The position numbers and the translations under genes are program-made. Below are positions 9,272-29,923 of a stretch of DNA of 37,268 bases, piece by piece (positions within the stretch are counted from its first letter, which is position 1; the number at the start of each line of letters is the position of its first letter). The stretch lies in the sequence record NC_073051.1. One strand, written 5' to 3'. Under the pieces are notes generated by a model, which was given only the letters and a program-made list of their open reading frames with translations, searched no databases and had not been told where the DNA came from. This stretch comes from Escherichia phage PEC14.

Positions 9272-10358
9272 TCAATATATGGCGGATCGAATGATTCGCC
9301 GACACATTTTCACCCAGCGCCTGAGTAATGACCAGGCGCGAAGGGTGCTGTCCATGTGGGAGAAGTTCCGGCCTACATTACTGGGGAAGCTGACCGAGTT
9401 GCTTGATGGCAAATCGTCAATGAATAACCGGGCACTTTCCACGCTGTTAACGCAACTCGACAAGACCGTTAAAGCAGAATTGCGCACCGAGTTTAAGGTG
9501 TTGGCTGAAAGCCTTCAGGAGTTTGCCGACACGGAGGCTGATTATCTCGCCGACACATTAACGGCAGCGATCCAGCCGGTGGTCGCCGTACCTGCGGTCG
9601 AGGTGGTTGGCGTAGTGACCGGTGCGCAGATCGCAGCGACGGCTATGAAAAACCCGTTCCAGGGAAATACCATGATGCAATGGCCTGATTCATTGTCTGA
9701 GTGGACCAGGACGCAGATCGGGAATCAGGTGCGCGCTGGATTCATCCAGGGCAAGCCAACTATGGAAATTATAGCGGACGTGAGGCGCGCGCTCGGCGGT
9801 CGTAGTGCGCAAGCCATCTCGAGCGTTGTTAAGTCCGCAGTCAACCACTATGCGGCGACAGCCCGCGAACTAATGGTAAAAGCAAATGACGATATTCTCG
9901 AAGGTCGCCAATGGTTATCTACATTGGACACGCATACTTCTCCCATGTGCCAGCTACGCGATCGCCTGTTTTATCCGGTTGATGTTACTCCCGACACCAA
10001 AGGAAAGCGCGGCGGGAAAGTGGTGGCTGGGTCACAATATGGCGCTGGTCCGGGCAAGTTGCATTATTGTTGCCGGTCGACGGAGACGTGGAAGGTTAAA
10101 GGCATGGAAGATTGGCCCAGTGGTAAGCGTCCGGCCCTGAAGGCTGATGCGGGTCGATTGCTGAGTGAGCAGGTCGACGCGCAGACTGATTTCTTCTCAT
10201 GGGTGCAGCGCCAGCCGCGCCATATCCTGGAAGAATTATACGGAGTGCAACGCGCCGACCAGATTATGCGCGGCGTGAAAGTGCCGAAGATGTTCACCGA
10301 TTCAGGCGAACTAATGACTATCGCACAGCTTAAAAACCGGGGGTTATGGCGTGATTAA
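9255..10358 (+). CDS. head morphogenesis protein (Mu F-like minor head protein)
   Basis: Position after portal; Mu F-like region with conserved Cys (LDTHTSPMCQLRDRLF). Confidence 0.65.
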   Translation: MAKTINQYMADRMIRRHIFTQRLSNDQARRVLSMWEKFRPTLLGKLTELLDGKSSMNNRALSTLLTQLDKTVKAELRTEFKVLAESLQEFADTEADYLADTLTAAIQPVVAVPAVEVVGVVTGAQIAATAMKNPFQGNTMMQWPDSLSEWTRTQIGNQVRAGFIQGKPTMEIIADVRRALGGRSAQAISSVVKSAVNHYAATARELMVKANDDILEGRQWLSTLDTHTSPMCQLRDRLFYPVDVTPDTKGKRGGKVVAGSQYGAGPGKLHYCCRSTETWKVKGMEDWPSGKRPALKADAGRLLSEQVDAQTDFFSWVQRQPRHILEELYGVQRADQIMRGVKVPKMFTDSGELMTIAQLKNRGLWRD

Positions 10359-17933: not shown

Positions 17934-20579
17934 ATGGCAGATCAGGCAGCGGGCATCACGCTCAAGGCGGACGTCGCGCAAATTAAAACGGCTAATACTG
18001 TGCTGGACACATTTGCGCAGAAATCCGAGAACACAGAACAGAAAGTAAAGAAATTAAACGACACCCTCGGCAAGTCGAAAAAGGTTACTGGCGACGCCGC
18101 TGGCGGAATGGAGAAGTTAGCGACTGAATCGCAGCGTGCCGCCGATGGCATGACGAAACAGGAGCGACTCGCCAGCCGATTAGGCATGTCTACCAAAAAC
18201 CTGGGATTCGCATCGCGGAACGCCGCATTCCAGTTGCAGGATATTGCGGTAACGCTTGAGATGGGTATGCCGGTCCACCGCGTTATGCTTCAGCAGCTAC
18301 CGCAGCTTACTGGGGCGTTTGGCGGACTTGGAAACACACTGCGATATGTTGCGGGCTTTCTCGGCCCAGTAGGGATCGGCCTTTCGGCATTAACGGCGAC
18401 GTTAGGCGTAGGGGTGGCAATTACGACCCGCGCAGAGAACCAGGTGGCGGCGCTTAATAAGACGCTGGCGCTATCCGGTAATATTTCAGGCCTCACAGCT
18501 AACCAGATCCTTGTGCTGTCCGAGAACGCCGAGCGCATGGGCGGGTCATTCCGCAAGACGCGTGACACAATCCAGGCGCTGGCGGCGGCGGGTGTGAAAG
18601 CGGGTGGTGACTTCGGCGCATTGGCTAAGGTAGTTAATGACTTTGCGAAGGTGTCCAGCCAGCCGATCGAGGATGTGGTAGCGGCGGTGGCGAAGCTGTC
18701 AACCGACCCCGTTGGCGGACTGCGTGCGCTGGCGGATAAGTATCACGTCGTAAACGAAGCGCAGATCCAGCAGGTACAGTCGCTCGTTGATACGGGTCGT
18801 GAGACAGACGCAGTTGCGTTGGCTAACAAAACAGCCGCGGCGTCGTTCACCAGCATGACCAATGAGATCAAGGCGAACATGGGTACGCTTGAGCGGTCGA
18901 TGAACGTCGTTACATCGGCAGCTAAGTCTATGTGGGATGCCATCCTGGATGTGGGCCGCGCGCAGTCCTCCAATGAGTCCGAGATGAAAGCGCGCGAATC
19001 ACTACAGCGCATGACCACGGCTTACTATGCCGAGATGAAAGCGGTAAACGCTGCCGGTGGAGTGATGACCGAAGCTCAGAAAGCGCGTATTAACATGCTT
19101 TATAGCGAACTGGTCGCCCAGGAGAAAGTAGTGGCGTCGCTCACCCTTCGTAACCGTGCGGAGCGAGACAACGCCCGCGCCGCAGACGAATCCGCAAAGG
19201 CGAACGAGGAGGCTAACCGCACCGCCCGCGACCGCGCTGCGTTCGAGAAGGAGTACGCAACTAACGCGAAGAAGCGCGCAGACGAGATAGCCCGCCTCAA
19301 TTTGCTGAATAAGCGCGGCGTTATTGACGAGAAAGAGCTTGCTGAGGCGGTTAAGCAGGTAAACGAGCGTTACAAAGACCCGGCCCCGAAGAAGGCCGCG
19401 GCTGTTCGCGTGGATGCCGGTATGAAAATGCTGGAAGTCGCACGGAGCGAACTGGCCCAGCTTCGAGAATCAGGCAAACAGATCGAAGCCAACGCATCGA
19501 CGCAGACCCGCACGCAACGCGCTCAAGCGGCCCTAAACAAGCTGATCGCCGACAATGAGCAGTTAATCGCTGCGAGCAAAGAAAGAGCGCTAACGGCAGC
19601 CGAAAAGCAGCAGATGGTGGAATTTGGACGCGTGAAGGAAGTGCGCGAGCAGATCGTCGAAGAAGCCAAATTGCTGGACGCGAAAGAGAAGCAGGTTAAG
19701 GCGCACGCGCAGATCGATGCCTTCGTTAAGAACCAGAACGCCGAACTAAAAGCCACCGCGGCGGGCTATGCGCTTTCCACTCGCGAAGCGGCAAACCTGC
19801 GCGAAGAATTGCAGCTAATCGACCGTCTGAAGAGGGTTGGCGCTAACGATACCGATATAGACAAGGCGGTGTCTAAGCTGCGGGAAGTGCAGGAGGCGCA
19901 GACCGGCGCTAACGCCTCGCTATGGGATGGATTCAGTCGCGGGCTTAAGGATAGCGTGGATGAGATGGGTAACGGATATACGCAGATGACGTCACTCACA
20001 AAATTCACGTTCAGCGCTATGCAGGACACGATGAACGAGTTTTTCGAGACGGGCAAGATTAACGCGAAGGATATGGTCAAATCCATCCTGAGCGAGTTAA
20101 TCAAGCTGGCTACCTCGCAGGCGTTCAAGTCGATTGTTAGCGCTTTCGGTGGTGACGGCGGCAAAAACGGATTGTTCGGCGCTATCTTCTCGGGCCTCAC
20201 TAAGAATGCGGACGGCGGAGCGTACGCAGGAGGCAATCTGGCGGCCTATTCGGGGAAAGTGGTAAGCCAGCCTACCTTTTTCAGTTATGGCGTCCAGGCG
20301 TTCGCTAAGGGCGCAGGATTGATGGGTGAGGCCGGTCCCGAGGCCATCATGCCTCTGAAGCGCGGGCCGGACGGGAAACTGGGCGTTGCCGCTTCGGGTG
20401 CTGGCGGCGGTGGTATGGTCGTGACGACTAACGTTTACACGGGGACTGGTAAAACGGATACCAGTGTCAGCGGGCCGGACCCCCGTACCGCGCAGGCGTT
20501 CGGCAAGCAAATCACCGAGGCGGTGAAGGCTGAGATCGTGAAAGCGACGAAACCGGGTGGTGTACTTTACAAACGATGA
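17934..20579 (+). CDS. tape measure protein
   Basis: 881 aa, Ala/Gln/Lys-rich helical repeats with Gly-rich C-terminal region; directly after chaperone/frameshift gene. Confidence 0.85.
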   Translation: MADQAAGITLKADVAQIKTANTVLDTFAQKSENTEQKVKKLNDTLGKSKKVTGDAAGGMEKLATESQRAADGMTKQERLASRLGMSTKNLGFASRNAAFQLQDIAVTLEMGMPVHRVMLQQLPQLTGAFGGLGNTLRYVAGFLGPVGIGLSALTATLGVGVAITTRAENQVAALNKTLALSGNISGLTANQILVLSENAERMGGSFRKTRDTIQALAAAGVKAGGDFGALAKVVNDFAKVSSQPIEDVVAAVAKLSTDPVGGLRALADKYHVVNEAQIQQVQSLVDTGRETDAVALANKTAAASFTSMTNEIKANMGTLERSMNVVTSAAKSMWDAILDVGRAQSSNESEMKARESLQRMTTAYYAEMKAVNAAGGVMTEAQKARINMLYSELVAQEKVVASLTLRNRAERDNARAADESAKANEEANRTARDRAAFEKEYATNAKKRADEIARLNLLNKRGVIDEKELAEAVKQVNERYKDPAPKKAAAVRVDAGMKMLEVARSELAQLRESGKQIEANASTQTRTQRAQAALNKLIADNEQLIAASKERALTAAEKQQMVEFGRVKEVREQIVEEAKLLDAKEKQVKAHAQIDAFVKNQNAELKATAAGYALSTREAANLREELQLIDRLKRVGANDTDIDKAVSKLREVQEAQTGANASLWDGFSRGLKDSVDEMGNGYTQMTSLTKFTFSAMQDTMNEFFETGKINAKDMVKSILSELIKLATSQAFKSIVSAFGGDGGKNGLFGAIFSGLTKNADGGAYAGGNLAAYSGKVVSQPTFFSYGVQAFAKGAGLMGEAGPEAIMPLKRGPDGKLGVAASGAGGGGMVVTTNVYTGTGKTDTSVSGPDPRTAQAFGKQITEAVKAEIVKATKPGGVLYKR

Positions 20580-20586
20580 TAAAATG

Positions 20587-20615
20587 GCCCTCACATCCAT
20601 CGTGGGGGCTTTTTT
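20587..20615 (+). terminator. hairpin + T-run abutting the next start codon
   Basis: gccctcacatccatcgtgggggc followed by tttttt then ATG. Confidence 0.45.
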
Positions 20616-21215
20616 ATGTCACAAGGTACGATCACATTAACTAAGGGTAGTAAGACCGTTACAGGCGCGGGGACGGCGTTCCTTAGCGAGATCGGGAAGG
20701 TACTCGTATTCGCCCGCATCGACGGCAACGACTACACCGGCAAAATTGCGGCGTTCAACTCGAACACGGTCATTACACTGAAAGATAACTGGGCCGGTCC
20801 AACGAAATCCGGTGCGGTATATGAGCTAATCGAAGCACACGACCCCCGATCAAACGAATGGCCCTATTACTGGCACATGCAATTGCAGGGCGGCGGCGAC
20901 GTGCAGTTAGCTTTCCGGTCGGAGGAATTGCAATTCGGTAACGGTTACGGTCAGAACATCGCGGACGGCCCGAACGCCGAAACGAAACAGTTCCCCGTGC
21001 AATTCATAGGACTGACTACCGACAAGTGGTGTAACCCTAAGCTGGTTTACAACTTCCTTCGCGGGCACTTTGTAAAACCGTTCATCGTCACCGCGCCGGA
21101 TGGCGAGACAGGTTTATTCGTGGTCGAGCGTTCGAGCTTGTCGTACACTGACAACGGGCACTACACGGCAACGGTATCCGCCACCCTTAAAACAGCTATT
21201 GGATTCGTAAGATGA
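20616..21215 (+). CDS. minor tail protein (lambda M position) with fibre-like N-terminal domain
   Basis: First gene after tape measure; N-terminal ~65 aa resemble the N-terminus of the fibre at 28091. Confidence 0.55.
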   Translation: MSQGTITLTKGSKTVTGAGTAFLSEIGKVLVFARIDGNDYTGKIAAFNSNTVITLKDNWAGPTKSGAVYELIEAHDPRSNEWPYYWHMQLQGGGDVQLAFRSEELQFGNGYGQNIADGPNAETKQFPVQFIGLTTDKWCNPKLVYNFLRGHFVKPFIVTAPDGETGLFVVERSSLSYTDNGHYTATVSATLKTAIGFVR

Positions 21216-22000
21216 ATAAACTCTATCGTGAAGCGACGCGCTTTGACCCATCGGGCCGCGTTCGCCTGATTCACATTGACGCGCAGGACGTGGAACCCGG
21301 CGACGGCGCGATCGGCGCGGGGCACCACTATTTTCACTACTGCTTTATTCCGCACACTGCCGAGGATATTGCTGCCGCTGGGGGTGACGAGGATAAGCTA
21401 AAACCTAAATCAATCTTCTTCGGCGGGCAGGAGTTCGAATTCTGGCCCTTCGATCTGTCGGGCCTTAACTTCTCCACATCAACGGCAGCAGAACCGCAGC
21501 TGACCATTGTCGATATTGGCGGAATTATCACCCGGCTGTCGCTGAATCACGACCAGCTACTGGGCGCGAAGGTTGAGATCATTGATACGTTCGCGAAGTT
21601 CCTGGACAACGGGACAGATCCAGACCCGACGCAGAAACGAGTTCAGGAGTATTACATCGACTCGCAGGTCGGGCGCAATCCGGGCAAGCAAATCACCTTC
21701 GCACTATCCTCACCTGCGGATATGGAAGGGCAGGTCGTACCACGTCGCCAAATCATGAATATGTGCGAATGGGCGCTCAACGGGAAGTACGCCAGCGGGG
21801 ACGGGTGCACCTGGAACCTTGCGAAGCCTGGTATCAAGTATTACGACGAGCGAGGTAATGAAGTCATCGCGATGAACATGGACCGATGCGGCGGCTGTTT
21901 GTCCGACTGTTATCTTCGATTCGGGCAAGGGCTTGCGGACCCTAAAGCGGCGGTGCTGGACTTCGGCGGCTTTCCGGGGTCCAGATTAATTAAGGGGTAG
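21212..22000 (+). CDS. minor tail protein L-like
   Basis: ATGA overlap with upstream gene; C-terminal cysteine cluster (CEW...C...CGGC...C) as in Fe-S binding gpL-type proteins. Confidence 0.7.
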   Translation: MNKLYREATRFDPSGRVRLIHIDAQDVEPGDGAIGAGHHYFHYCFIPHTAEDIAAAGGDEDKLKPKSIFFGGQEFEFWPFDLSGLNFSTSTAAEPQLTIVDIGGIITRLSLNHDQLLGAKVEIIDTFAKFLDNGTDPDPTQKRVQEYYIDSQVGRNPGKQITFALSSPADMEGQVVPRRQIMNMCEWALNGKYASGDGCTWNLAKPGIKYYDERGNEVIAMNMDRCGGCLSDCYLRFGQGLADPKAAVLDFGGFPGSRLIKG

Positions 22001-22002
22001 TT

Positions 22003-22743
22003 ATGTTAACGAAGAAGGTTAAAAGCGATATCGCCGCACACGTCGCGGCCTGTCTGCCGGAAGAAGCCTGTGGCCTGGTTGTCATGGTGGGTCGTAAGCA
22101 AGTGTTCGTCCCATGTCTGAACGTATTCGAAGACCCGACCGGCGTGCGCTCACGCAAAGACGCTTTTACGATTAGTGATATGGCCTGGATGGATGCCGAG
22201 GATATGGGCGACGTCGTGCGCGTAGTCCACTCGCATCCAGGCCAGAGAGAGCTTACCCCCTCACTGGGCGACGTTAACGGATGCAACGGCAGCGGCGTAG
22301 TCTGGACCATCACTAACGAATATGGCGATTTTATCGAGATCGACCCTGAAGACCCTCCGCTGGTGGGGCGTCGATTTGTTCTCGGAATTACGGATTGTTA
22401 CGGCCTCGTCATGGACTGGCACAAAAAGCAGGGCGTAAACCTGCCAGACTTCCGCGTGCCGTATAACTGGTGGGAGACAGGCGAAAATCTGTATATGGAT
22501 AATTGGTACGGTGCTGGCTTCAGGGAATGCGAGGAGAATACGCCGGGGGCAATGGTCATCATGCAGATTAGCGCGCCAGTGCCTAACCACGCTGGGATAT
22601 TCCTTCCGGGCAACCAACTACTACACCATATCTACGGCAGTCTGTCGAGCGTAGTCCCCTTCCGGGCAGGATTTTTCCGCGACAATGTGGTTAAATGGGT
22701 CCGTCATAAAGACCTACCGGGGAATATCACAGAATGGCAATGA
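22003..22743 (+). CDS. tail tip assembly protein K-like (JAMM/MPN + NlpC/P60)
   Basis: JAMM-like HSHPGQRELTPSLGD and NlpC/P60-like Cys in GITDCYGLVMDW. Confidence 0.75.
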   Translation: MLTKKVKSDIAAHVAACLPEEACGLVVMVGRKQVFVPCLNVFEDPTGVRSRKDAFTISDMAWMDAEDMGDVVRVVHSHPGQRELTPSLGDVNGCNGSGVVWTITNEYGDFIEIDPEDPPLVGRRFVLGITDCYGLVMDWHKKQGVNLPDFRVPYNWWETGENLYMDNWYGAGFRECEENTPGAMVIMQISAPVPNHAGIFLPGNQLLHHIYGSLSSVVPFRAGFFRDNVVKWVRHKDLPGNITEWQ

Positions 22744-23351
22744 CAACGTTTAAATTGTACGGCGTCTTGGGGCGTCGTTTTGGTAGAGTGCATAAGCTGG
22801 ACTGCTTCACACCGGGCGAAGGCATCACCGGCTTGTGTGTGAAGTTGCCAGGGTTACAAGACTTTTTAATGTCCGCCCACCTGGACAACATGATGTTCAA
22901 GGTGCGCAAAGGCAACCACACAATGACCGGTTATGATGAGCTTGGCGAGTTCCACGGCAACCGCGTCGTTACCATCGCGCCGGTTATGACTGGCGCAAAA
23001 AGAGGATTGGGCCAATTGCTGGCGGGTGTTGCGATCGTAGTGGCGTCGTTCTATACGGGCGGACTTGCTACTGCCGCTTTCGGGGCTTCGGCTGCAACCG
23101 CTGCCGCTATTGGTACAGCGACGTTTTCGTTCGGCATGTCGATGGCGCTGGGTGGCGTTATGCAATTGCTGTCGCCTCAACCGAAAGGATTGCAGACACG
23201 GCAGGACGTGGATAACAAGGCTTCGTATGCGTTCGGTGGCCCGGTAAACACGACCGCGCAAGGTACGGCGCTTGGTGTATTATGGGGCGAGCGTGAGATC
23301 GGCGGCGCTATTATTTCAGCAGGAATCGTAACCGAGGATTTGAACGAATGA
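22734..23351 (+). CDS. tail assembly protein I-like
   Basis: Position between K-like and J-like genes; hydrophobic Gly/Ala-rich C-terminal half. Confidence 0.65.
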   Translation: MAMTTFKLYGVLGRRFGRVHKLDCFTPGEGITGLCVKLPGLQDFLMSAHLDNMMFKVRKGNHTMTGYDELGEFHGNRVVTIAPVMTGAKRGLGQLLAGVAIVVASFYTGGLATAAFGASAATAAAIGTATFSFGMSMALGGVMQLLSPQPKGLQTRQDVDNKASYAFGGPVNTTAQGTALGVLWGEREIGGAIISAGIVTEDLNE

Positions 23352-26300
23352 CGATTATTTACGACGTCACGGGCCATAAAGGCGGCGGTGGCAAACAGCA
23401 CACCCCACAGGAGACACCCGATAGCCTGCATTCTCTGGCTAAAATCCGCATCTTGCTTGCGCTGGGAGAAGGTGAGTTCGAAGGTATTCCAGACCCTAAC
23501 GAATTACGGCGGCGCGTATATCTGGAAGGAACACCGATCCAGAATGCAGACCTGTCTGAAAACTTCCCTGGGGCGCGTGTGGAGTTCCGCCCCGGAACAC
23601 AGCACCAGGATGTGATCCACGGATTTTCAGCGGTGGAAAGTGAGCAATCTGTCGGCGTAAAACTGGAAAACGGCACGCCGTGGGTGCGCCAGGTTAACGA
23701 CACCAGTCTGGACGCCGTTCGCATTCGCATCGGCATTCCGGCCCTGTACACTAACGAAGATAACGGCGACCTGGTGGGCGGGCGCATCGACTATAAGATC
23801 GTTGTATATACGGATAACGCCGACCCGCGTGAGTTCAGATTCGCCGCCGTTGGTAAAACAATGTCGCTATATGAGCGCGACCACCGCATCGAATTACCGC
23901 CGAACGTGAATGCCGGCTGGCGAGTGGAGGTGCACCGCATAACGGCAGACTCCACATCGGCGAAAGTTGTTAATGATATCCGGGTGCAATCCATCACTGA
24001 GATTATCGACGCCCGCCTGCGTTACCCGCTAACCGCGCTGTTGTTTGTGGAGTTCGACGCTAAAGCGTTCCAGAACATCCCGCGCGTGTCCATTAAGTGC
24101 AAAGGTCGCAAAGTTCTAATACCGAACAACTACGACCCGATCAATCATACCTATTCCGGTGACTGGGACGGCACGTTTAAACGCGCATGGACGGATAACC
24201 CTGCGTGGCACTGGTACGATATTTGTATTACTGAGCGCTTCGGCCTCGGTCGGCGTATCAAACCGCAAATGCTAAACCGATACGCGCTCTACCAGATTGC
24301 GCAGCGCTGCGATCAGTTGGTCAGCGACGGCAACGGTGGTCGAGAAATCCGCTTTAAGAATGATATGTACATTCAGTCACAGACGGATGCCTGGACCGTG
24401 CTTAAGGATTTAGCCGCCATCTTCGCCGGAATGACCTGGTGGGGCAACCAGATGTTGAATATCGTCAGTGACCAACCGGTCGCAGCAGTGTCGCACACTA
24501 TCACCAACGCCTCGGTAATTGATGGTCGATTCGACTACGCATCTGGCAGCCAGAAAACTCGCTATTCCACATTTGCGGTCGCATACGGCAACCCGAAGAA
24601 CCACTATGAAGATGCCATCGCCACGGGGCAGCGCGTCGAACTGGTACGCCGCCATAAGATTAACCGTCTTGATATTACGGCGATCGGCTGTACGCGCGAA
24701 TCTGAAGCGCAACGCCGCGGGCATTGGGCGCTAATATCCAACCAGCTTGACCAGCAAGTTAGTTTTAAGGTAGGCATGGAAGGGTTATTCTTTATTCCTG
24801 GTAGCGTAGTCGCGATCGCGGATACAAACATTTCTGGCGGATTCGAGACTCGCGGCGGTCGCCTGTTGTCGGACCCCGGAACGCGTACCGTGCTGAACAC
24901 GGACAGCGAAATCACATTCCGCCCTGGCGACAAGTTCCTGGTGCGCACCGATAGCGGTAACGTGGAGACTCGCGAGATCGCCAGCGTCAACGGCAACAAG
25001 GTCACGCTAAAAACCGCACTGGATGCCGACCCGATTCCAGACCAACCGTTTTGCGTTGATGGCGATGATATCCAGTTGCAAAAATTCCGCATCACCGATC
25101 TGGAGTATGACGACTCTACGAGCACTTTCTCGGTGCGCGGGATTGAATACAACGATAGCAAGTATGATGCCGTTGATAATGGCGCTCGCCTTGATCCTGG
25201 TATCTTCACGCAAGTGCCAGACGGTGTAATGAAGGGGCCGGAATCCGTTACCATCACCCCGTCGCAGATCTCATCGCAAGGCCAGCTAATCACCAACGTG
25301 GATATTGTTTTCCCGCCGGTGAAGGATGCCGTTGTTTATGAAATCCAGTGGCGGCGTACAAGCCTGCAGAATATGGCGGTCCAGTGGGGTAACGACTGGG
25401 TGAATATCCCACGCACGGCGTCGAATGGCGCGCACATCCCTAACGTGTTCTCCGGCAACTACCAGGCGCGCGTCCGTGCGATCGGTATGGGCGAGATTTC
25501 ATCCCCGTGGGTGTCGTCCGCCATCACGCCGGTCGAAGGTCGCCTCGGTGGGCTTAACGCACCAATCATCACCAACGCGATTTCGGGTCTGCACCAGATT
25601 CTATGGAAGTGGAACCACAACAACGCCGCTACGGATATCTCATACACCGAGCTTGAAGTGCGCAAGACGGGTGAGACGGAATGGAAATTCCTGTCCAACG
25701 TCCCATACCCAGGGTCGGATTATGCGCAAACGTCGCTGGAGTTCGGGATTTACCAGCAGTTGCGCGCCCGTGTAGCGGATAAAATCGGCAACCTGTCGGA
25801 CTGGTCCGCCCCGTTCGAAGGCCAGGTTAGTGACAAAGTTGACGAGTACATGAAGGGGCTTGAAGACGAGTTCTTGACTTCCGAGGATGGTAAACACTTC
25901 CAAGAAGCCATTAATACGATTCCGCAAGGCATTTACGAATCAATGCTCACGGACGCCCAGCAGATGTTCAACGCCCGCGCCGAGTACAAAGGGATTTACG
26001 CAGAAATCAAGGTCGCATATAACGTGGCGGCAGACGCCAACAAGGCTGTCGCGCAACTGGAAACGTTGATCGGCACTCGCCTTGACGATGCGGAAGCGGC
26101 AATCCACACGTTGCAGACAGCGCAAAGCACGCACGAGCAAGCATTCGCCCAGTATCAGCAAACTGTTGCCGCTAAGTTCGGGGAACAGGACGCCGCCATC
26201 CAGCAGGTACAAACGGCAACGGCAGACGTAGCGGGCGTGCTGGCGGAGTACAAGACCCAGGTGGCGGCACAGTTCGGTAAGCAGTCTGCAGCTATCGAGC

Positions 26301-26794
26301 AGAAGATGACGTCTTCGTTTAATCATGCTGGGGGCAGCGCCACATATAGCCTTAAGGCTGGCGTGACGTATAACGGGGCTTACTACGATGCCGGTATGCA
26401 GCTTTCCGTCGTTGCGGAAGGCGGCGCGGTTAAATCACGCATCGCGTTCAAGGCGGACCAGTTCTACATCATGCACCCGTCGAATGGGTCGCTTTCGTCC
26501 GCGTTTATCGTTGACGGCGGACAGGTGTACATTGACACGGCGCGCATCAAGAATGCGTCCATCAACTTCGCACAGATCACGGACACGCTGCAATCCAATA
26601 ACTGGAATCCGGGTAGCAGCGGCTGGCGTATCGCGAAGGATGGCGGGGCGGAGTTCAACAACGTAACGGTCCGAGGCAACTTGTTCGCGACTACGGGTAA
26701 TTTCGGATTCTCCGGCGGGTCCGTTACGATCGACGCAACGGGCGTTAACGTGCCATTACCTGGCGGTGGTAGGGTGAAAGTGGGGACGTGGTAA
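23348..26794 (+). CDS. central tail fibre / host specificity protein J-like
   Basis: 1148 aa; GAGGA SD; last gene of the M-L-K-I-J series. Confidence 0.8.
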   Translation: MTIIYDVTGHKGGGGKQHTPQETPDSLHSLAKIRILLALGEGEFEGIPDPNELRRRVYLEGTPIQNADLSENFPGARVEFRPGTQHQDVIHGFSAVESEQSVGVKLENGTPWVRQVNDTSLDAVRIRIGIPALYTNEDNGDLVGGRIDYKIVVYTDNADPREFRFAAVGKTMSLYERDHRIELPPNVNAGWRVEVHRITADSTSAKVVNDIRVQSITEIIDARLRYPLTALLFVEFDAKAFQNIPRVSIKCKGRKVLIPNNYDPINHTYSGDWDGTFKRAWTDNPAWHWYDICITERFGLGRRIKPQMLNRYALYQIAQRCDQLVSDGNGGREIRFKNDMYIQSQTDAWTVLKDLAAIFAGMTWWGNQMLNIVSDQPVAAVSHTITNASVIDGRFDYASGSQKTRYSTFAVAYGNPKNHYEDAIATGQRVELVRRHKINRLDITAIGCTRESEAQRRGHWALISNQLDQQVSFKVGMEGLFFIPGSVVAIADTNISGGFETRGGRLLSDPGTRTVLNTDSEITFRPGDKFLVRTDSGNVETREIASVNGNKVTLKTALDADPIPDQPFCVDGDDIQLQKFRITDLEYDDSTSTFSVRGIEYNDSKYDAVDNGARLDPGIFTQVPDGVMKGPESVTITPSQISSQGQLITNVDIVFPPVKDAVVYEIQWRRTSLQNMAVQWGNDWVNIPRTASNGAHIPNVFSGNYQARVRAIGMGEISSPWVSSAITPVEGRLGGLNAPIITNAISGLHQILWKWNHNNAATDISYTELEVRKTGETEWKFLSNVPYPGSDYAQTSLEFGIYQQLRARVADKIGNLSDWSAPFEGQVSDKVDEYMKGLEDEFLTSEDGKHFQEAINTIPQGIYESMLTDAQQMFNARAEYKGIYAEIKVAYNVAADANKAVAQLETLIGTRLDDAEAAIHTLQTAQSTHEQAFAQYQQTVAAKFGEQDAAIQQVQTATADVAGVLAEYKTQVAAQFGKQSAAIEQKMTSSFNHAGGSATYSLKAGVTYNGAYYDAGMQLSVVAEGGAVKSRIAFKADQFYIMHPSNGSLSSAFIVDGGQVYIDTARIKNASINFAQITDTLQSNNWNPGSSGWRIAKDGGAEFNNVTVRGNLFATTGNFGFSGGSVTIDATGVNVPLPGGGRVKVGTW

Positions 26795-26820: not shown

Positions 26821-27786
26821 CTAATACATGTTAGGGATGACTAGTAACGGTGTGGGTACGGTTACATTACGATTAGGAATCTGGAATTGCTGCCGTGAGT
26901 AGTTACCGATCACGCGATTTCGTGCCGCGCTAACCACGTTTCCCGCCATGCGTATCCCGTTCATTCGCACGTGGTTATATCCGCTGTTGTTCTCAATGAG
27001 CGCGCCGGTATATGAAAGCTGTACTAGGCTGTTGCCGATATTCTGACCGCCAGTGCCGATATTAATTACGGAATTGAGGACGAACGGCTTGTTAACGGTA
27101 GAGAACGTGACCTGTCCCTGGTTGTTAGTCATGGTGATCCCGGCCCCCGGCGTGGGTGGTGTATTGTTGAATATTACCAGGTCCATGTCCACCGAAGCCG
27201 CCACATCGTCGATACCACCATAGGACGCGTTGCGGACGATAATACTGCCACCATCGAAGCCTACTGATACGTTGCCGTCATCCCAGCGGGCGAACGGGAC
27301 ACCGCTAACTGGCAAGGCCATACTCCCGTTGACGCGCACGCGCTTCGCGTATCGGCAGGTCATCAGCTTTGCCACGTTGGATATTGCGGTGAAGTCCGTT
27401 GAGTTAGCTACGAGCAGGCCCGCGTTGCGCGAACCAACCGGCAGCACTTCCATTATGACGCCCGCCCATTGTGGTAAACCAGAGTACGCGCCATACGCAT
27501 CATCACCGCGCAGGGTGATTCCGCTATTACCGTTGCGAGTAACAGACGTGACGTAAAACGGATCGGGTATTACCAGGGTCTGGTCGAACACTTCAATCAC
27601 CTCTACCGGGCGAGTGAGCGCGACGATGACCTGCGACCCCGCCGTAAGAGGGGTGTTAATGGTTAGCGTCTTGTTGGATTGCGCCCGCTGGTTAAAGCTG
27701 GTGCAGTATGACGGCGCGCGGAGTCCCGCGGTTATCTCCATGACAGGTCTACCGTCGTTGTAGTCTATTAATATTCCAGCGCCCAT
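26821..27786 (-). CDS. beta-rich protein, candidate receptor-binding protein (321 aa)
   Basis: N/G/S/T/V-rich; ATG 27786 with GGGAG SD right after the lipoprotein stop; transcribed opposite to tail genes. Confidence 0.5.
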   Translation of the reverse strand: MGAGILIDYNDGRPVMEITAGLRAPSYCTSFNQRAQSNKTLTINTPLTAGSQVIVALTRPVEVIEVFDQTLVIPDPFYVTSVTRNGNSGITLRGDDAYGAYSGLPQWAGVIMEVLPVGSRNAGLLVANSTDFTAISNVAKLMTCRYAKRVRVNGSMALPVSGVPFARWDDGNVSVGFDGGSIIVRNASYGGIDDVAASVDMDLVIFNNTPPTPGAGITMTNNQGQVTFSTVNKPFVLNSVINIGTGGQNIGNSLVQLSYTGALIENNSGYNHVRMNGIRMAGNVVSAARNRVIGNYSRQQFQIPNRNVTVPTPLLVIPNMY

Positions 27787-27788
27787 TA

Positions 27789-28010
27789 TTACCACTCCCG
27801 TGATTTAACTGAAACAGTGCCGGAAAAATTGCCGTCACTGTCGGCAGACAGACCAGTGAAGCGCATGTCCACATCCCCGGACGGGATTTTTCGCCCGTCA
27901 ACGTAACGCAACATGCAGCTGCCGTACGCAACCGTAATGCAATCGCCGTTGTTGCGTTCTACGGCACAACCGGACAAAAGAACCGCACAAATCATAATTA
28001 AAGTTTTCAT
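27789..28010 (-). CDS. small lipoprotein (73 aa), candidate superinfection-exclusion protein
   Basis: Signal peptide MKTLIMICAVLLSGC with lipobox; AGGTGA SD; track TTG start replaced by ATG 28010. Confidence 0.6.
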   Translation of the reverse strand: MKTLIMICAVLLSGCAVERNNGDCITVAYGSCMLRYVDGRKIPSGDVDMRFTGLSADSDGNFSGTVSVKSREW

Positions 28011-28040
28011 GGTATCATCACCTATATTTGGTCGAGTTTT

Positions 28041-28074
28041 AGTATTACACCGCTCGATCAAGAATGCAACCAAT
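28041..28074 (-). promoter_or_regulatory. candidate promoter ATTGGTTGCAT-N17-AATACT driving lipoprotein operon
   Basis: Motif on minus strand in the divergent region between lipoprotein and fibre genes. Confidence 0.35.
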
Positions 28075-28090
28075 TTACGAGGATTTAGCT

Positions 28091-29923
28091 ATGGCAGCGG
28101 GTACACTATCCGTAACGAATAACAGCAAGGCGGTTGTCGGGGTAGGCACGACGTTTACCGCGGTTAAAGCCGGAGACTTCTTATCGCTGGTAGTGGGGCA
28201 AGTACCCTACACTGTTGCGATCGCGTCCGTAGAAAGCGACACCGCGATTACGCTTGTGCTGCCGTTCGACGGACCCACGGCAACTGGCCTCGCGTGGGAT
28301 GGCGTTAAGCGCGATACCATGTCGCTGGCAACGATGGGCGTAACAGTACAGGCGCAGAAAGCGTTGCGCTTGATGATCGCGGACGAAAACAACTGGCGCG
28401 CAATCTTCGGAGACGAGGAAGAAATCGCGGTAACGCTGCCGAACGGGCAAGTTATGCAGGGTATGTCGTGGGGCTATCTGTCGCAATTGCTGAAGGAAGT
28501 TGACCCCGTTGAAATGCGCAACCTGCAACAACAAGCCGCGGCATCTGAAGCAGCAGCGCTGGTATCGCGTAATGAGGCCGAAGGCTTCAAGAACGATACC
28601 AATACCATCAAGACGCAGACCAACCAGATTAAGGCAGATACGCAGGCTATCCGCGACGCCACCAATACCATCAAGACGCAGACCAACAAGATTAAGGCAG
28701 ATACGCAGGCCATCAAAGACCAGACGAACCAGATCAAGACTGACACCGGCGTTATGAGGGACCAGGCCAACGCTGCGAAGACTGACGCGCAAGCTGCCAG
28801 CGCAGCCGCGCAGGGATTCCGCGATCAGGCCGAGGAGTGGGCGCAAAGCGTTAACGCGGATAACCTGCTAACAAAATCCGGCAACCTGGCAGGGCTTGCG
28901 GATAAATCGGCGTCGTGGAAGAACCTTATGCCTGCGGGGCCGCTGCGAATTGGGGCGCACCCCGTTGCGGACCTGGATGCCGCGACCCGGAAATGGACGC
29001 TGGAGCGTTTTACCAAAGGCGTGGCGGAGTCGTCGTGGACTGTCAGGAAAACCGTCACCACCACACCACAGAACGGCACTGTCGTCCGTGGCGGTGAGGT
29101 GGAATCGAGATATTCCAACCCAACATCTACGCAGTTCGCCCGTCTGTACTCAAGCTCTGTATTTGGTTCTTCTAACGCGGCTGTTGTTGAGGCAGAGGGT
29201 TCTTCCAGGCACGCTTATAAATTCTATGAGGATGGCACAGTTGACTTCCGACAGTCAGGGAAGACCAACCCATTCCGCATGTATACAAATATTGGAACAT
29301 GGAATGGCATAACGGACGCCACGGCATCCAACTTGACAACTAACGGAATGGACAGGGTGGCCATTTCGAGCGGCTCAGATACTCTGGTGCACGGATATTC
29401 TATCGGCGGCACCAAACCTAATGGATATCCAACAAAGGTTGGATATCACATGTATATTCCAGGCAATAATGCATTTGGTATTGCTTGCATGGTAATCGGT
29501 GGGGATAACGGAAAATTTTGCCGTTACTTTTTTGACATTGATGGTCTAATATATGGTTCGACCGATTACGGGAACTTCAGTTATATGAAAAATGGCACTT
29601 CTGACTTACGTGTAAAACACGGCATCGCCCATGTTGGAGTTGACAAATCATACTCTAATATTAAAGGGCTGGAATTTGTAGAGTTCATTTATGATAATGA
29701 CGAACAAAATCGAGTTCGGCATGGCGTGATTGCACAGCAAGCAGAGGTTGTTGAGCCTTTATATGTCAAGACGCGCAAATATGTTGGCAATAATCCAGGA
29801 GAGATTGTGGAGCAGAAGGAACTGGACACTACGCCGATGCTTCTGGATACCATGCATGTTGTGCAGACGTTGATGCAGAAGATCGAGGCTATGGAGGCCG
29901 AGATCGCGGCGCTGAAGAAATGA
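28091..29923 (+). CDS. side tail fibre with C-terminal intramolecular chaperone (peptidase S74-like) domain
   Basis: Start at ATG 28091 with GAGGA SD; heptad-like repeat shaft; C-terminal SDLRVKHGI...coiled-coil ending typical of self-cleaving chaperone domains. Confidence 0.75.
   Translation: MAAGTLSVTNNSKAVVGVGTTFTAVKAGDFLSLVVGQVPYTVAIASVESDTAITLVLPFDGPTATGLAWDGVKRDTMSLATMGVTVQAQKALRLMIADENNWRAIFGDEEEIAVTLPNGQVMQGMSWGYLSQLLKEVDPVEMRNLQQQAAASEAAALVSRNEAEGFKNDTNTIKTQTNQIKADTQAIRDATNTIKTQTNKIKADTQAIKDQTNQIKTDTGVMRDQANAAKTDAQAASAAAQGFRDQAEEWAQSVNADNLLTKSGNLAGLADKSASWKNLMPAGPLRIGAHPVADLDAATRKWTLERFTKGVAESSWTVRKTVTTTPQNGTVVRGGEVESRYSNPTSTQFARLYSSSVFGSSNAAVVEAEGSSRHAYKFYEDGTVDFRQSGKTNPFRMYTNIGTWNGITDATASNLTTNGMDRVAISSGSDTLVHGYSIGGTKPNGYPTKVGYHMYIPGNNAFGIACMVIGGDNGKFCRYFFDIDGLIYGSTDYGNFSYMKNGTSDLRVKHGIAHVGVDKSYSNIKGLEFVEFIYDNDEQNRVRHGVIAQQAEVVEPLYVKTRKYVGNNPGEIVEQKELDTTPMLLDTMHVVQTLMQKIEAMEAEIAALKK
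28598..28723 (+). repeat. in-frame 63-bp tandem duplication in fibre shaft
   Basis: Two adjacent near-identical 63-bp units encoding TNTIKTQTN(Q/K)IKADTQAI... Confidence 0.7.

Follow-up and report, generated by a model that had tools for sequence, protein, structure and literature searches.

Side fibres determine the passage of siphophages across the O-antigen barrier, and to our knowledge the way in which they are fastened to the tail has been described for only a few systems, namely Ur-lambda, T5/DT57C, the F-type pyocins and Sf11. In Ur-lambda, 12 copies of the Stf N-terminal domain form a collar at the gpV/gpM junction, where it is contacted by residues K2 and W6 of gpM, both of which lie on the exterior of the gpM ring at the boundary between tube and tip (PMC12617516). 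T5 p132 and its DT57C counterpart LtfC also form collars of 12. In such collars small beta domains surround the tube/tip junction, a site to which the gpM N-terminus contributes. [quoted passage not shown] According to two of them, each trimer engages two of its three anchor copies, and one likens the engaged anchors to a pseudo-sixfold ring. In Shigella phage Sf11, the distal tail protein gp17, which bears a large C-terminal appendage, docks tailspikes through a helical adaptor. Distal tail proteins (Dits) with accessory domains are themselves already known: T5 pb9, the Dit of phage Chi, the 'evolved' Dits of lactococcal phages and the R4C Dit with its insertion domain all combine a Dit with an additional domain, which in pb9 and the Chi protein is a decorating beta-barrel or OB-like fold.

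The Dit analysed here belongs to the same broad type, but its accessory domain is related to the anchor of the phage's own side fibre. The gene occupies positions 20616–21215 (+ strand) of the window, by which we mean the whole stretch of 37,268 nucleotides analysed, from a phage of the genus Dhillonvirus (Escherichia phage PEC14, NC_073051.1). Its translation, 199 residues and a stop codon, is exactly the sequence quoted in the initial annotation; it is 100% identical to a protein of Escherichia phage PEC9, shares 95–98% identity with its equivalents in the other listed Dhillonvirus members and matches phrog_9922 over its full length. As the initial annotation had proposed, the gene sits in the lambda gpM position, between the tape measure gene (17934–20579, +; Pfam TMP_2 and Tape_meas_lam_C) and a gene for a gpL-type hub protein (21212–22000, +). 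Homologues of gpK (22003–22743; JAB and NlpC/P60 domains), gpI (22734–23351) and gpJ (23348–26794) follow.

The C-terminal domain of the 199-aa protein is a gpM-type Dit. Residues 86–187 match Pfam Phage_min_tail (PF05939; 44.4 bits against a cut-off of 39), and the protein also matches phrog_14, 'minor tail protein', at 3e-16. It further matches, from end to end (E=7e-131; the printed alignment shows 10 differences), chain B of PDB entry 23gd, a 199-aa chain deposited as "Distal tail protein gp20". This entry also holds homologues of the neighbouring proteins, gp21 "Hub protein" (gpL) and gp24 "J-like tail tip protein" (gpJ), as well as of the tail tube protein gp15, and its two gp20 chains for one gp21 and one gp24 are as expected for a C3 asymmetric unit. 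No paper describing the Dhillonvirus tail entries 23gd, 10lj or 10xw was found in the literature searched. Given the end-to-end match and the identity of the accompanying chains, the 199-aa protein is a Dit with an added N-terminal domain.

Three segments can be distinguished in the protein. Residues 1–72 (20616–20831, +) form a beta-barrel N-terminal domain (NTD), residues 73–81 (EAHDPRSNE; 20832–20858, +) form a linker, and residues 82–199 (20859–21212, +) constitute the ring domain, which has a tail-tube-like fold. The boundaries follow from alignment with lambda gpM and other short gpM proteins, in which the NTD ends near residue 72 and the ~9-residue linker meets the ring domain at a point four residues ahead of an invariant tryptophan, W86, the equivalent of lambda gpM W6; gpM proteins that lack the NTD begin to align at W82/P83, and model confidence drops after residue 75. 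Lambda gpM (109 aa) and T1 gpM (117 aa), in contrast, have no extra domain at all, and the pyocin Dit (113 aa) likewise lacks the anchor-type domain that the Dhillonvirus Dit carries.

The initial annotation had noticed that the N-terminus of this protein resembles that of the side fibre encoded downstream (28091–29923, +; 610 aa, with a C-terminal Peptidase_S74 chaperone domain), and the resemblance turns out to be real homology, extending over ~72 residues. BLASTP aligns residues 1–70 of the two proteins without a gap (24/70 identities, 34%; E=1e-7). The Smith–Waterman score of 99 compares with 27 ± 5 in 5000 shuffles, none of which reached it (z=14), so that the pairwise alignment stands up to a shuffle test; of all remaining ORFs in the window, that of the side fibre alone matches the Dit NTD. 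The PHROG matches are reciprocal, with the 199-aa protein matching the fibre's own family, phrog_1980, at 5e-13 and the fibre matching phrog_9922, the family of the 199-aa protein, at 1.3e-6. We also derived a family HMM from a non-redundant set of copies; it returns 2.6e-25 for the Dit and 6e-19 for the fibre, and exactly these two ORFs match it in each Dhillonvirus genome examined.

Structure prediction gave the same answer. AlphaFold2 modelled each N-terminus with confidence (pLDDT about 88–97 for the Dit and 83–94 for the fibre) and with a common seven-strand order (residues 5–8, 14–18, 28/30–35, 38–49, 52–55, 64–67 and 69–72/73); the shared domain is a six-stranded beta-barrel of ~70 residues. 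We considered whether two unrelated N-termini, both built of Gly/Thr/Ser-rich strands, might look alike by chance or composition. The identity is indeed just 34%, and a Foldseek search of the PDB with the fibre model reached a best E-value of only 0.037 (library to 2026-04-08; 23gd and 25ve were absent from the results). Against this stand the shuffle test, the reciprocal PHROG matches, the family HMM, the identical strand order predicted for the two models and a match of the Dit NTD to the solved anchor of an F2-pyocin side fibre (residues 5–81; E=2.9e-5). The probability of a chance likeness is therefore negligible and we reject it: the first ~72 residues of the Dit and the N-terminus of the fibre (28091–28306, +) are paralogous domains.

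The two proteins part company directly after this domain. The fibre model continues into a long stem helix (residues 74–105; 28310–28405, +), whereas the Dit model continues into a low-confidence linker with no counterpart to that helix. This bears on the suggestion in the initial annotation that the gene may encode a second fibre-like protein, a short fibre or appendage instead of a distal tail protein. Apart from the shared N-terminal domain itself, the protein offers nothing that such a reading could build on: the remainder is a gpM ring domain, the whole chain matches one whose deposited name is distal tail protein, the model shows neither a stem helix nor a coiled coil after the NTD, and Phage_min_tail is the only domain found in the 199 residues, with no receptor-binding or chaperone domain. 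Since shaft and receptor-binding domain are both missing, a second fibre is highly improbable, and we set it aside on domain content. The accompanying claim, that this is not a plain distal tail protein, survives in part. The shared module is truly homologous and is an anchor domain in fibres, so the protein is more than a minimal lambda gpM; it is nevertheless still a gpM-type Dit, with an extra barrel.

We were interested in the wider distribution of the shared domain, for which Pfam scans identified no covering model. An exhaustive HMMER search with Dit residues 1–82 retrieved 588 representative proteins at E≤1e-3. Among the best 150 of these, about 70 begin with the domain and are typically 250–500 aa long, as fibres are; 18, the longest reaching 2,700 aa, contain at least three copies in tandem; one (P0021) has two copies beside a sub-threshold match to Pfam SU10_adaptor; and a single cluster, that of Dhillonvirus, is a fusion to gpM. 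In cultured phages, tblastn places the domain at the head of the side fibres of N15 (gp25), HK225, ES18, SPN3UB and several Pseudomonas phages. The domain is thus a general-purpose module that occurs in fibres, in tandem arrays and in one gpM fusion. Its members share the motif GT-x-x-V/LTNGS-x-x-V-x-G-x-GT-x-F/W ... S-x-T-x-L/ITL ... G-x-T-x-SG. Giant proteins with tandem arrays, such as P0015 (1330 aa) and P0019 (1557 aa), are found among P0015–P0163 and have up to 13 matched stretches each by HMMER count; the arrays are interspersed with recurring 'FWDFGDGTFSTE' segments, which look PKD-like by eye.

The F-type pyocins provide the closest structural reference for this module. The side fibres PyoF13, PA0643 and PA0646 (PDB 25ve) begin with an OB-like anchor whose residues 5–81 are homologous to the Dit NTD, and the anchor segment defined in the pyocin studies, residues ~2–76 (PMC13455828; bioRxiv 10.64898/2026.02.24.707460; PMC12874032), is the homologue of both the Dit and the fibre NTD. 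Because this segment binds the central fibre shaft, the initial description of the shared module as an attachment domain is borne out where fibres are concerned. There is nevertheless a difference in context: the pyocin anchor heads a trimeric fibre and grips a coiled coil, whereas the Dhillonvirus Dit carries one copy of the domain and no stem. The Dhillonvirus arrangement also departs from that of the pb9-type Dits, whose accessory domains are C-terminal or inserted, in being N-terminal and in its paralogy with the fibre anchor of the same phage. A search for similarity to the pb9 sequence yielded nothing beyond a single sub-threshold Pfam match in one family member (E=0.008), with 0 of 54 sequences matching in a further scan, and no relationship in sequence or fold links the Dit NTD to the known collar domains (Ur-lambda Stf-N and T5 p132/LtfC). 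N-terminal placement, paralogy with the fibre anchor and the cassette polymorphism described below all appear to be undescribed in the literature searched.

By homology, and by analogy with the tail-tip entry 23gd, the Dit would form a hexameric ring where the tail tube meets the gpL/gpJ tip. Given that the linker enters the ring domain beside W86, the equivalent of the lambda tryptophan that lies on the outside of the Ur-lambda ring, six NTDs would be expected to hang outside the Dhillonvirus ring at this junction and so to encircle the tail-tip rim. One reading of this geometry is a built-in collar or dock, in which six Dit barrels and the barrels of the fibre trimers occupy one ring at the junction and the NTD recruits or counts fibres; NTD-less relatives would then fill all positions with fibre domains or dock their fibres elsewhere. 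A possible arrangement would be six Dit copies plus two engaged copies from each of three fibres, 12 in total. Several observations are in keeping with such a ring. Both proteins of one virion carry the same domain family in all of the 156 cultured Dhillonvirus records; in the F-pyocins, where each trimer engages two of its three copies, the family makes lateral ring contacts; the gp20 linker adjoins W86, whose lambda counterpart, gpM W6, contacts the 12-mer Stf collar of Ur-lambda; collars of 12 small domains are a known mode of holding side fibres in Ur-lambda and T5/DT57C; and extensions of the Dit dock receptor-binding proteins in Sf11. The Sf11 adaptor differs in being helical, with its docking demonstrated, whereas the Dhillonvirus domain is a beta-barrel with a putative docking role.

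One comparison that weighs against a dock comes from relatives without the NTD. Searches for homologous proteins returned few matches (10 and 4), and the closest gpM relatives outside cultured Dhillonvirus are 122–125 aa long and lack the domain. We read the contigs of two such NTD-less clusters, all metagenomic: L002–L004, from three samples, and L005. All four share the gene order of the window but encode a gpM of 123 aa that lacks the NTD, and they are the only places in which NTD-less alleles were seen. These contigs retain the fibre anchor domain, at 92–95% identity to the window in L002–L004 and 66% in L005. Moreover, in L002–L004 the anchor sits on a tail whose tube protein and gpJ N-terminus are 95–98% identical to those of the window. 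Close relatives thus have the gpM core alone, and the accessory domain is not needed for it.

The DNA itself records how the two forms are related. As far as position 20618, at the Dit ATG, the window and L002 are 93.6% identical; over the gpM domain and the first ~64 gpL codons the figure drops to 67%, and from 21404 onwards, across gpJ and as far as the start of the fibre gene, it is again 90%. Because identity falls inside 20618–21404 and recovers beyond it, we conclude that a mosaic cassette (20616–21404, +), comprising the NTD, the gpM domain and the gpL start (~64 codons), has been exchanged. The alternative, L002-type cassette combines the short gpM with a gpL that contains a 153-aa insertion. 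This insertion weakly matches residues 502–617 of the R4C Megatron protein (8gtc_M; E=1.7e-4), within a region (residues 482–629) that its authors describe as a carbohydrate-binding domain (PMC10276861). L005 has neither the Dit NTD nor the gpL insertion. The gpL homologue with the insertion is 415 aa long, against 262 in the window (L002 10362–11609; L003 6133–7380; L004 3772–5019); the insertion is placed after residue ~57 and co-occurs with the short, NTD-less gpM. A further copy of the NTD family in this position was ruled out by the family HMM (E=6.6).

The two paralogous domains also diverge independently of each other among genomes, with no tight co-divergence. Relative to the window, bov25_1D has a Dit NTD of 68% identity with a fibre NTD of 96%, and the pattern is reversed in CHD5UKE2 (91% and 76%) and 101114BS4 (89% and 75%); in Ioannina and LM40P1 both domains have diverged (79% for the Dit NTD and 81% for the fibre NTD in each). 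The gpM domain stays at 91–98% in all five. Divergent Dit NTD alleles thus occur with unchanged fibre NTDs, and vice versa, which argues against a fixed partnership in one collar. Across 23 genomes, representing few independent lineages, the two sets of identities are weakly correlated (Spearman rho 0.46, p=0.03), a value that shared ancestry alone could produce; as a test of interaction, the covariation leans mildly against it. Within the single Dit gene of bov25_1D (L006 2911–3510), the NTD is 68% and the gpM domain 96% identical to the window, and the neighbouring gpL and gpJ N-terminus are 98–99% identical; this pattern indicates either recombination of single domains or rapid change restricted to the NTD.

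Two further points weigh against a collar that includes the Dit: the sole solved binding mode of the anchor family is on a central fibre shaft, not on a Dit, and the deposited tail-tip entry 23gd contains no fibre chain. The second part of the initial proposal, that the protein may be an adaptor, is weakened on the same grounds, since NTD-less tails keep the fibre anchor, the two domains reassort and 23gd lacks a fibre chain. Taking both sides together, we consider that the NTD as a collar or dock is a possible explanation but a somewhat doubtful one. The more specific proposal of a single heteromeric collar, for example with six cis-tethered Dit barrels co-assembled with two barrels from each of three fibre trimers, is in our judgement unlikely. 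Were it true, half of the fibre collar would be built into the Dit, and this would represent a new mode of side-fibre attachment, distinct from those of Ur-lambda, T5 and the F-pyocins.

The explanation that we prefer, with about even confidence, is that the protein is a two-domain ('evolved') Dit whose NTD is an optional accessory decoration. One ~70-residue barrel of the fibre-anchor family is fused to the Dit N-terminus through the ~9-residue linker; it is gained and lost along with the recombination cassette, and would be a peripheral feature, not the docking site of the fibre. The NTD looks optional because close relatives without it keep the same fibre. Its role might be auxiliary adhesion to host surface glycans, or bracing of the tip, as suggested by the alternative cassette, which puts a carbohydrate-binding-like domain into gpL. 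The identity of that cassette, through a weak Megatron match (E=1.7e-4), is the only thing that suggests a link to adhesion, and no glycan-binding signature was found in the Dit NTD. An accessory decoration also has to accommodate the co-occurrence of the two NTDs in 156 of 156 cultured records, as would be expected if both work together, and the position of the NTD at the Ur-lambda collar site which, together with the rings formed by the family in F-pyocins, fits docking equally well.

If the NTD is a decoration, the fibre would dock by its own anchor on some tail component that NTD-less relatives have conserved. The best candidate is the coiled-coil shaft of gpJ, by analogy with the F-type pyocins; since NTD-less tails keep the anchor, gpJ and the tail tube, this would be the simplest account, with the gpJ shaft as the likeliest site. 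An Ala/Gln-rich segment of gpJ (residues ~891–990; 26018–26317, +), helical by the look of its sequence, aligns with residues 976–1076 of the F2-pyocin central fibre shaft and is a candidate docking site for the fibre anchor. Such docking appears feasible by comparison with the pyocin. The PDB entries searched include no fibre chain from the Dhillonvirus group.

This locus provides a natural case in which a fibre anchor module is also fused to the distal tail ring, together with natural controls, in the form of relatives that are 90–95% identical in DNA over most tail genes and either lack the fusion or carry an accessory domain in gpL. In genetically tractable Dhillonvirus isolates (BASEL Bas14–18 and Bas83–85) it would be easy to test whether the NTD docks the fibre or decorates the tip, and to locate the fibre. 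The analysis also brings to light a widespread ~70-residue tail and fibre domain that annotation pipelines miss, the Dit itself being called "minor tail protein" or "hypothetical". Its practical value is modest: one more exchangeable tail-tip module for host-range engineering.

Start codons deserve comment for both proteins. The fibre ATG at 28091 is a likelier start than the mechanical one at 28064, since a GAGGA Shine–Dalgarno sequence lies 7 nt upstream of it and the homologues examined, in L002, in L005 and among family members with the domain at the N-terminus, begin at the corresponding MAAGT, MAQGT or MSAGT. The fibre CDS of PEC9 is annotated from 27 nt ahead of the ATG preceded by the Shine–Dalgarno sequence, and in the Dit cluster representatives P0001 and P0002 (218 and 212 aa) the start precedes the MSQGT/MAQGT with which the 199-aa forms conservedly begin. 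The public start codons for the PEC9 fibre and for these two Dits are probably too far upstream.

Two genes lie on the opposite strand between gpJ and the fibre. One encodes a DUF6453 protein (26821–27795, −; phrog_1265, 'membrane protein, moron'); the other, a putative small lipoprotein gene at about 27798–28019 (−; coordinates derived from the PEC9 record), was placed by synteny with PEC9, L002 and L005, in which the small minus-strand gene matches Pfam Phage_lipoprotein. On the basis of modelling alone, both products have been proposed as missing receptor-binding parts of the tail spike (PMC12309495); judged by their orientation and by the lipoprotein nature of the second, they look more like superinfection-exclusion genes.

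Finally, a terminator-like hairpin with a T-run (20586–20610, +) lies immediately 5′ of the Dit ATG, and the NTD cassette starts right after it. The GC-rich hairpin, followed by TTTTTT, lies in the interval between the tape measure stop codon and the Dit ATG, where no obvious Shine–Dalgarno sequence is seen. It might act as a partial terminator, or else control translation, and so reduce expression of the tip genes relative to those for the tube and tape measure protein. The hairpin is kept in L002 and L005 (at ~9970–10000 in both), with changed stem bases.
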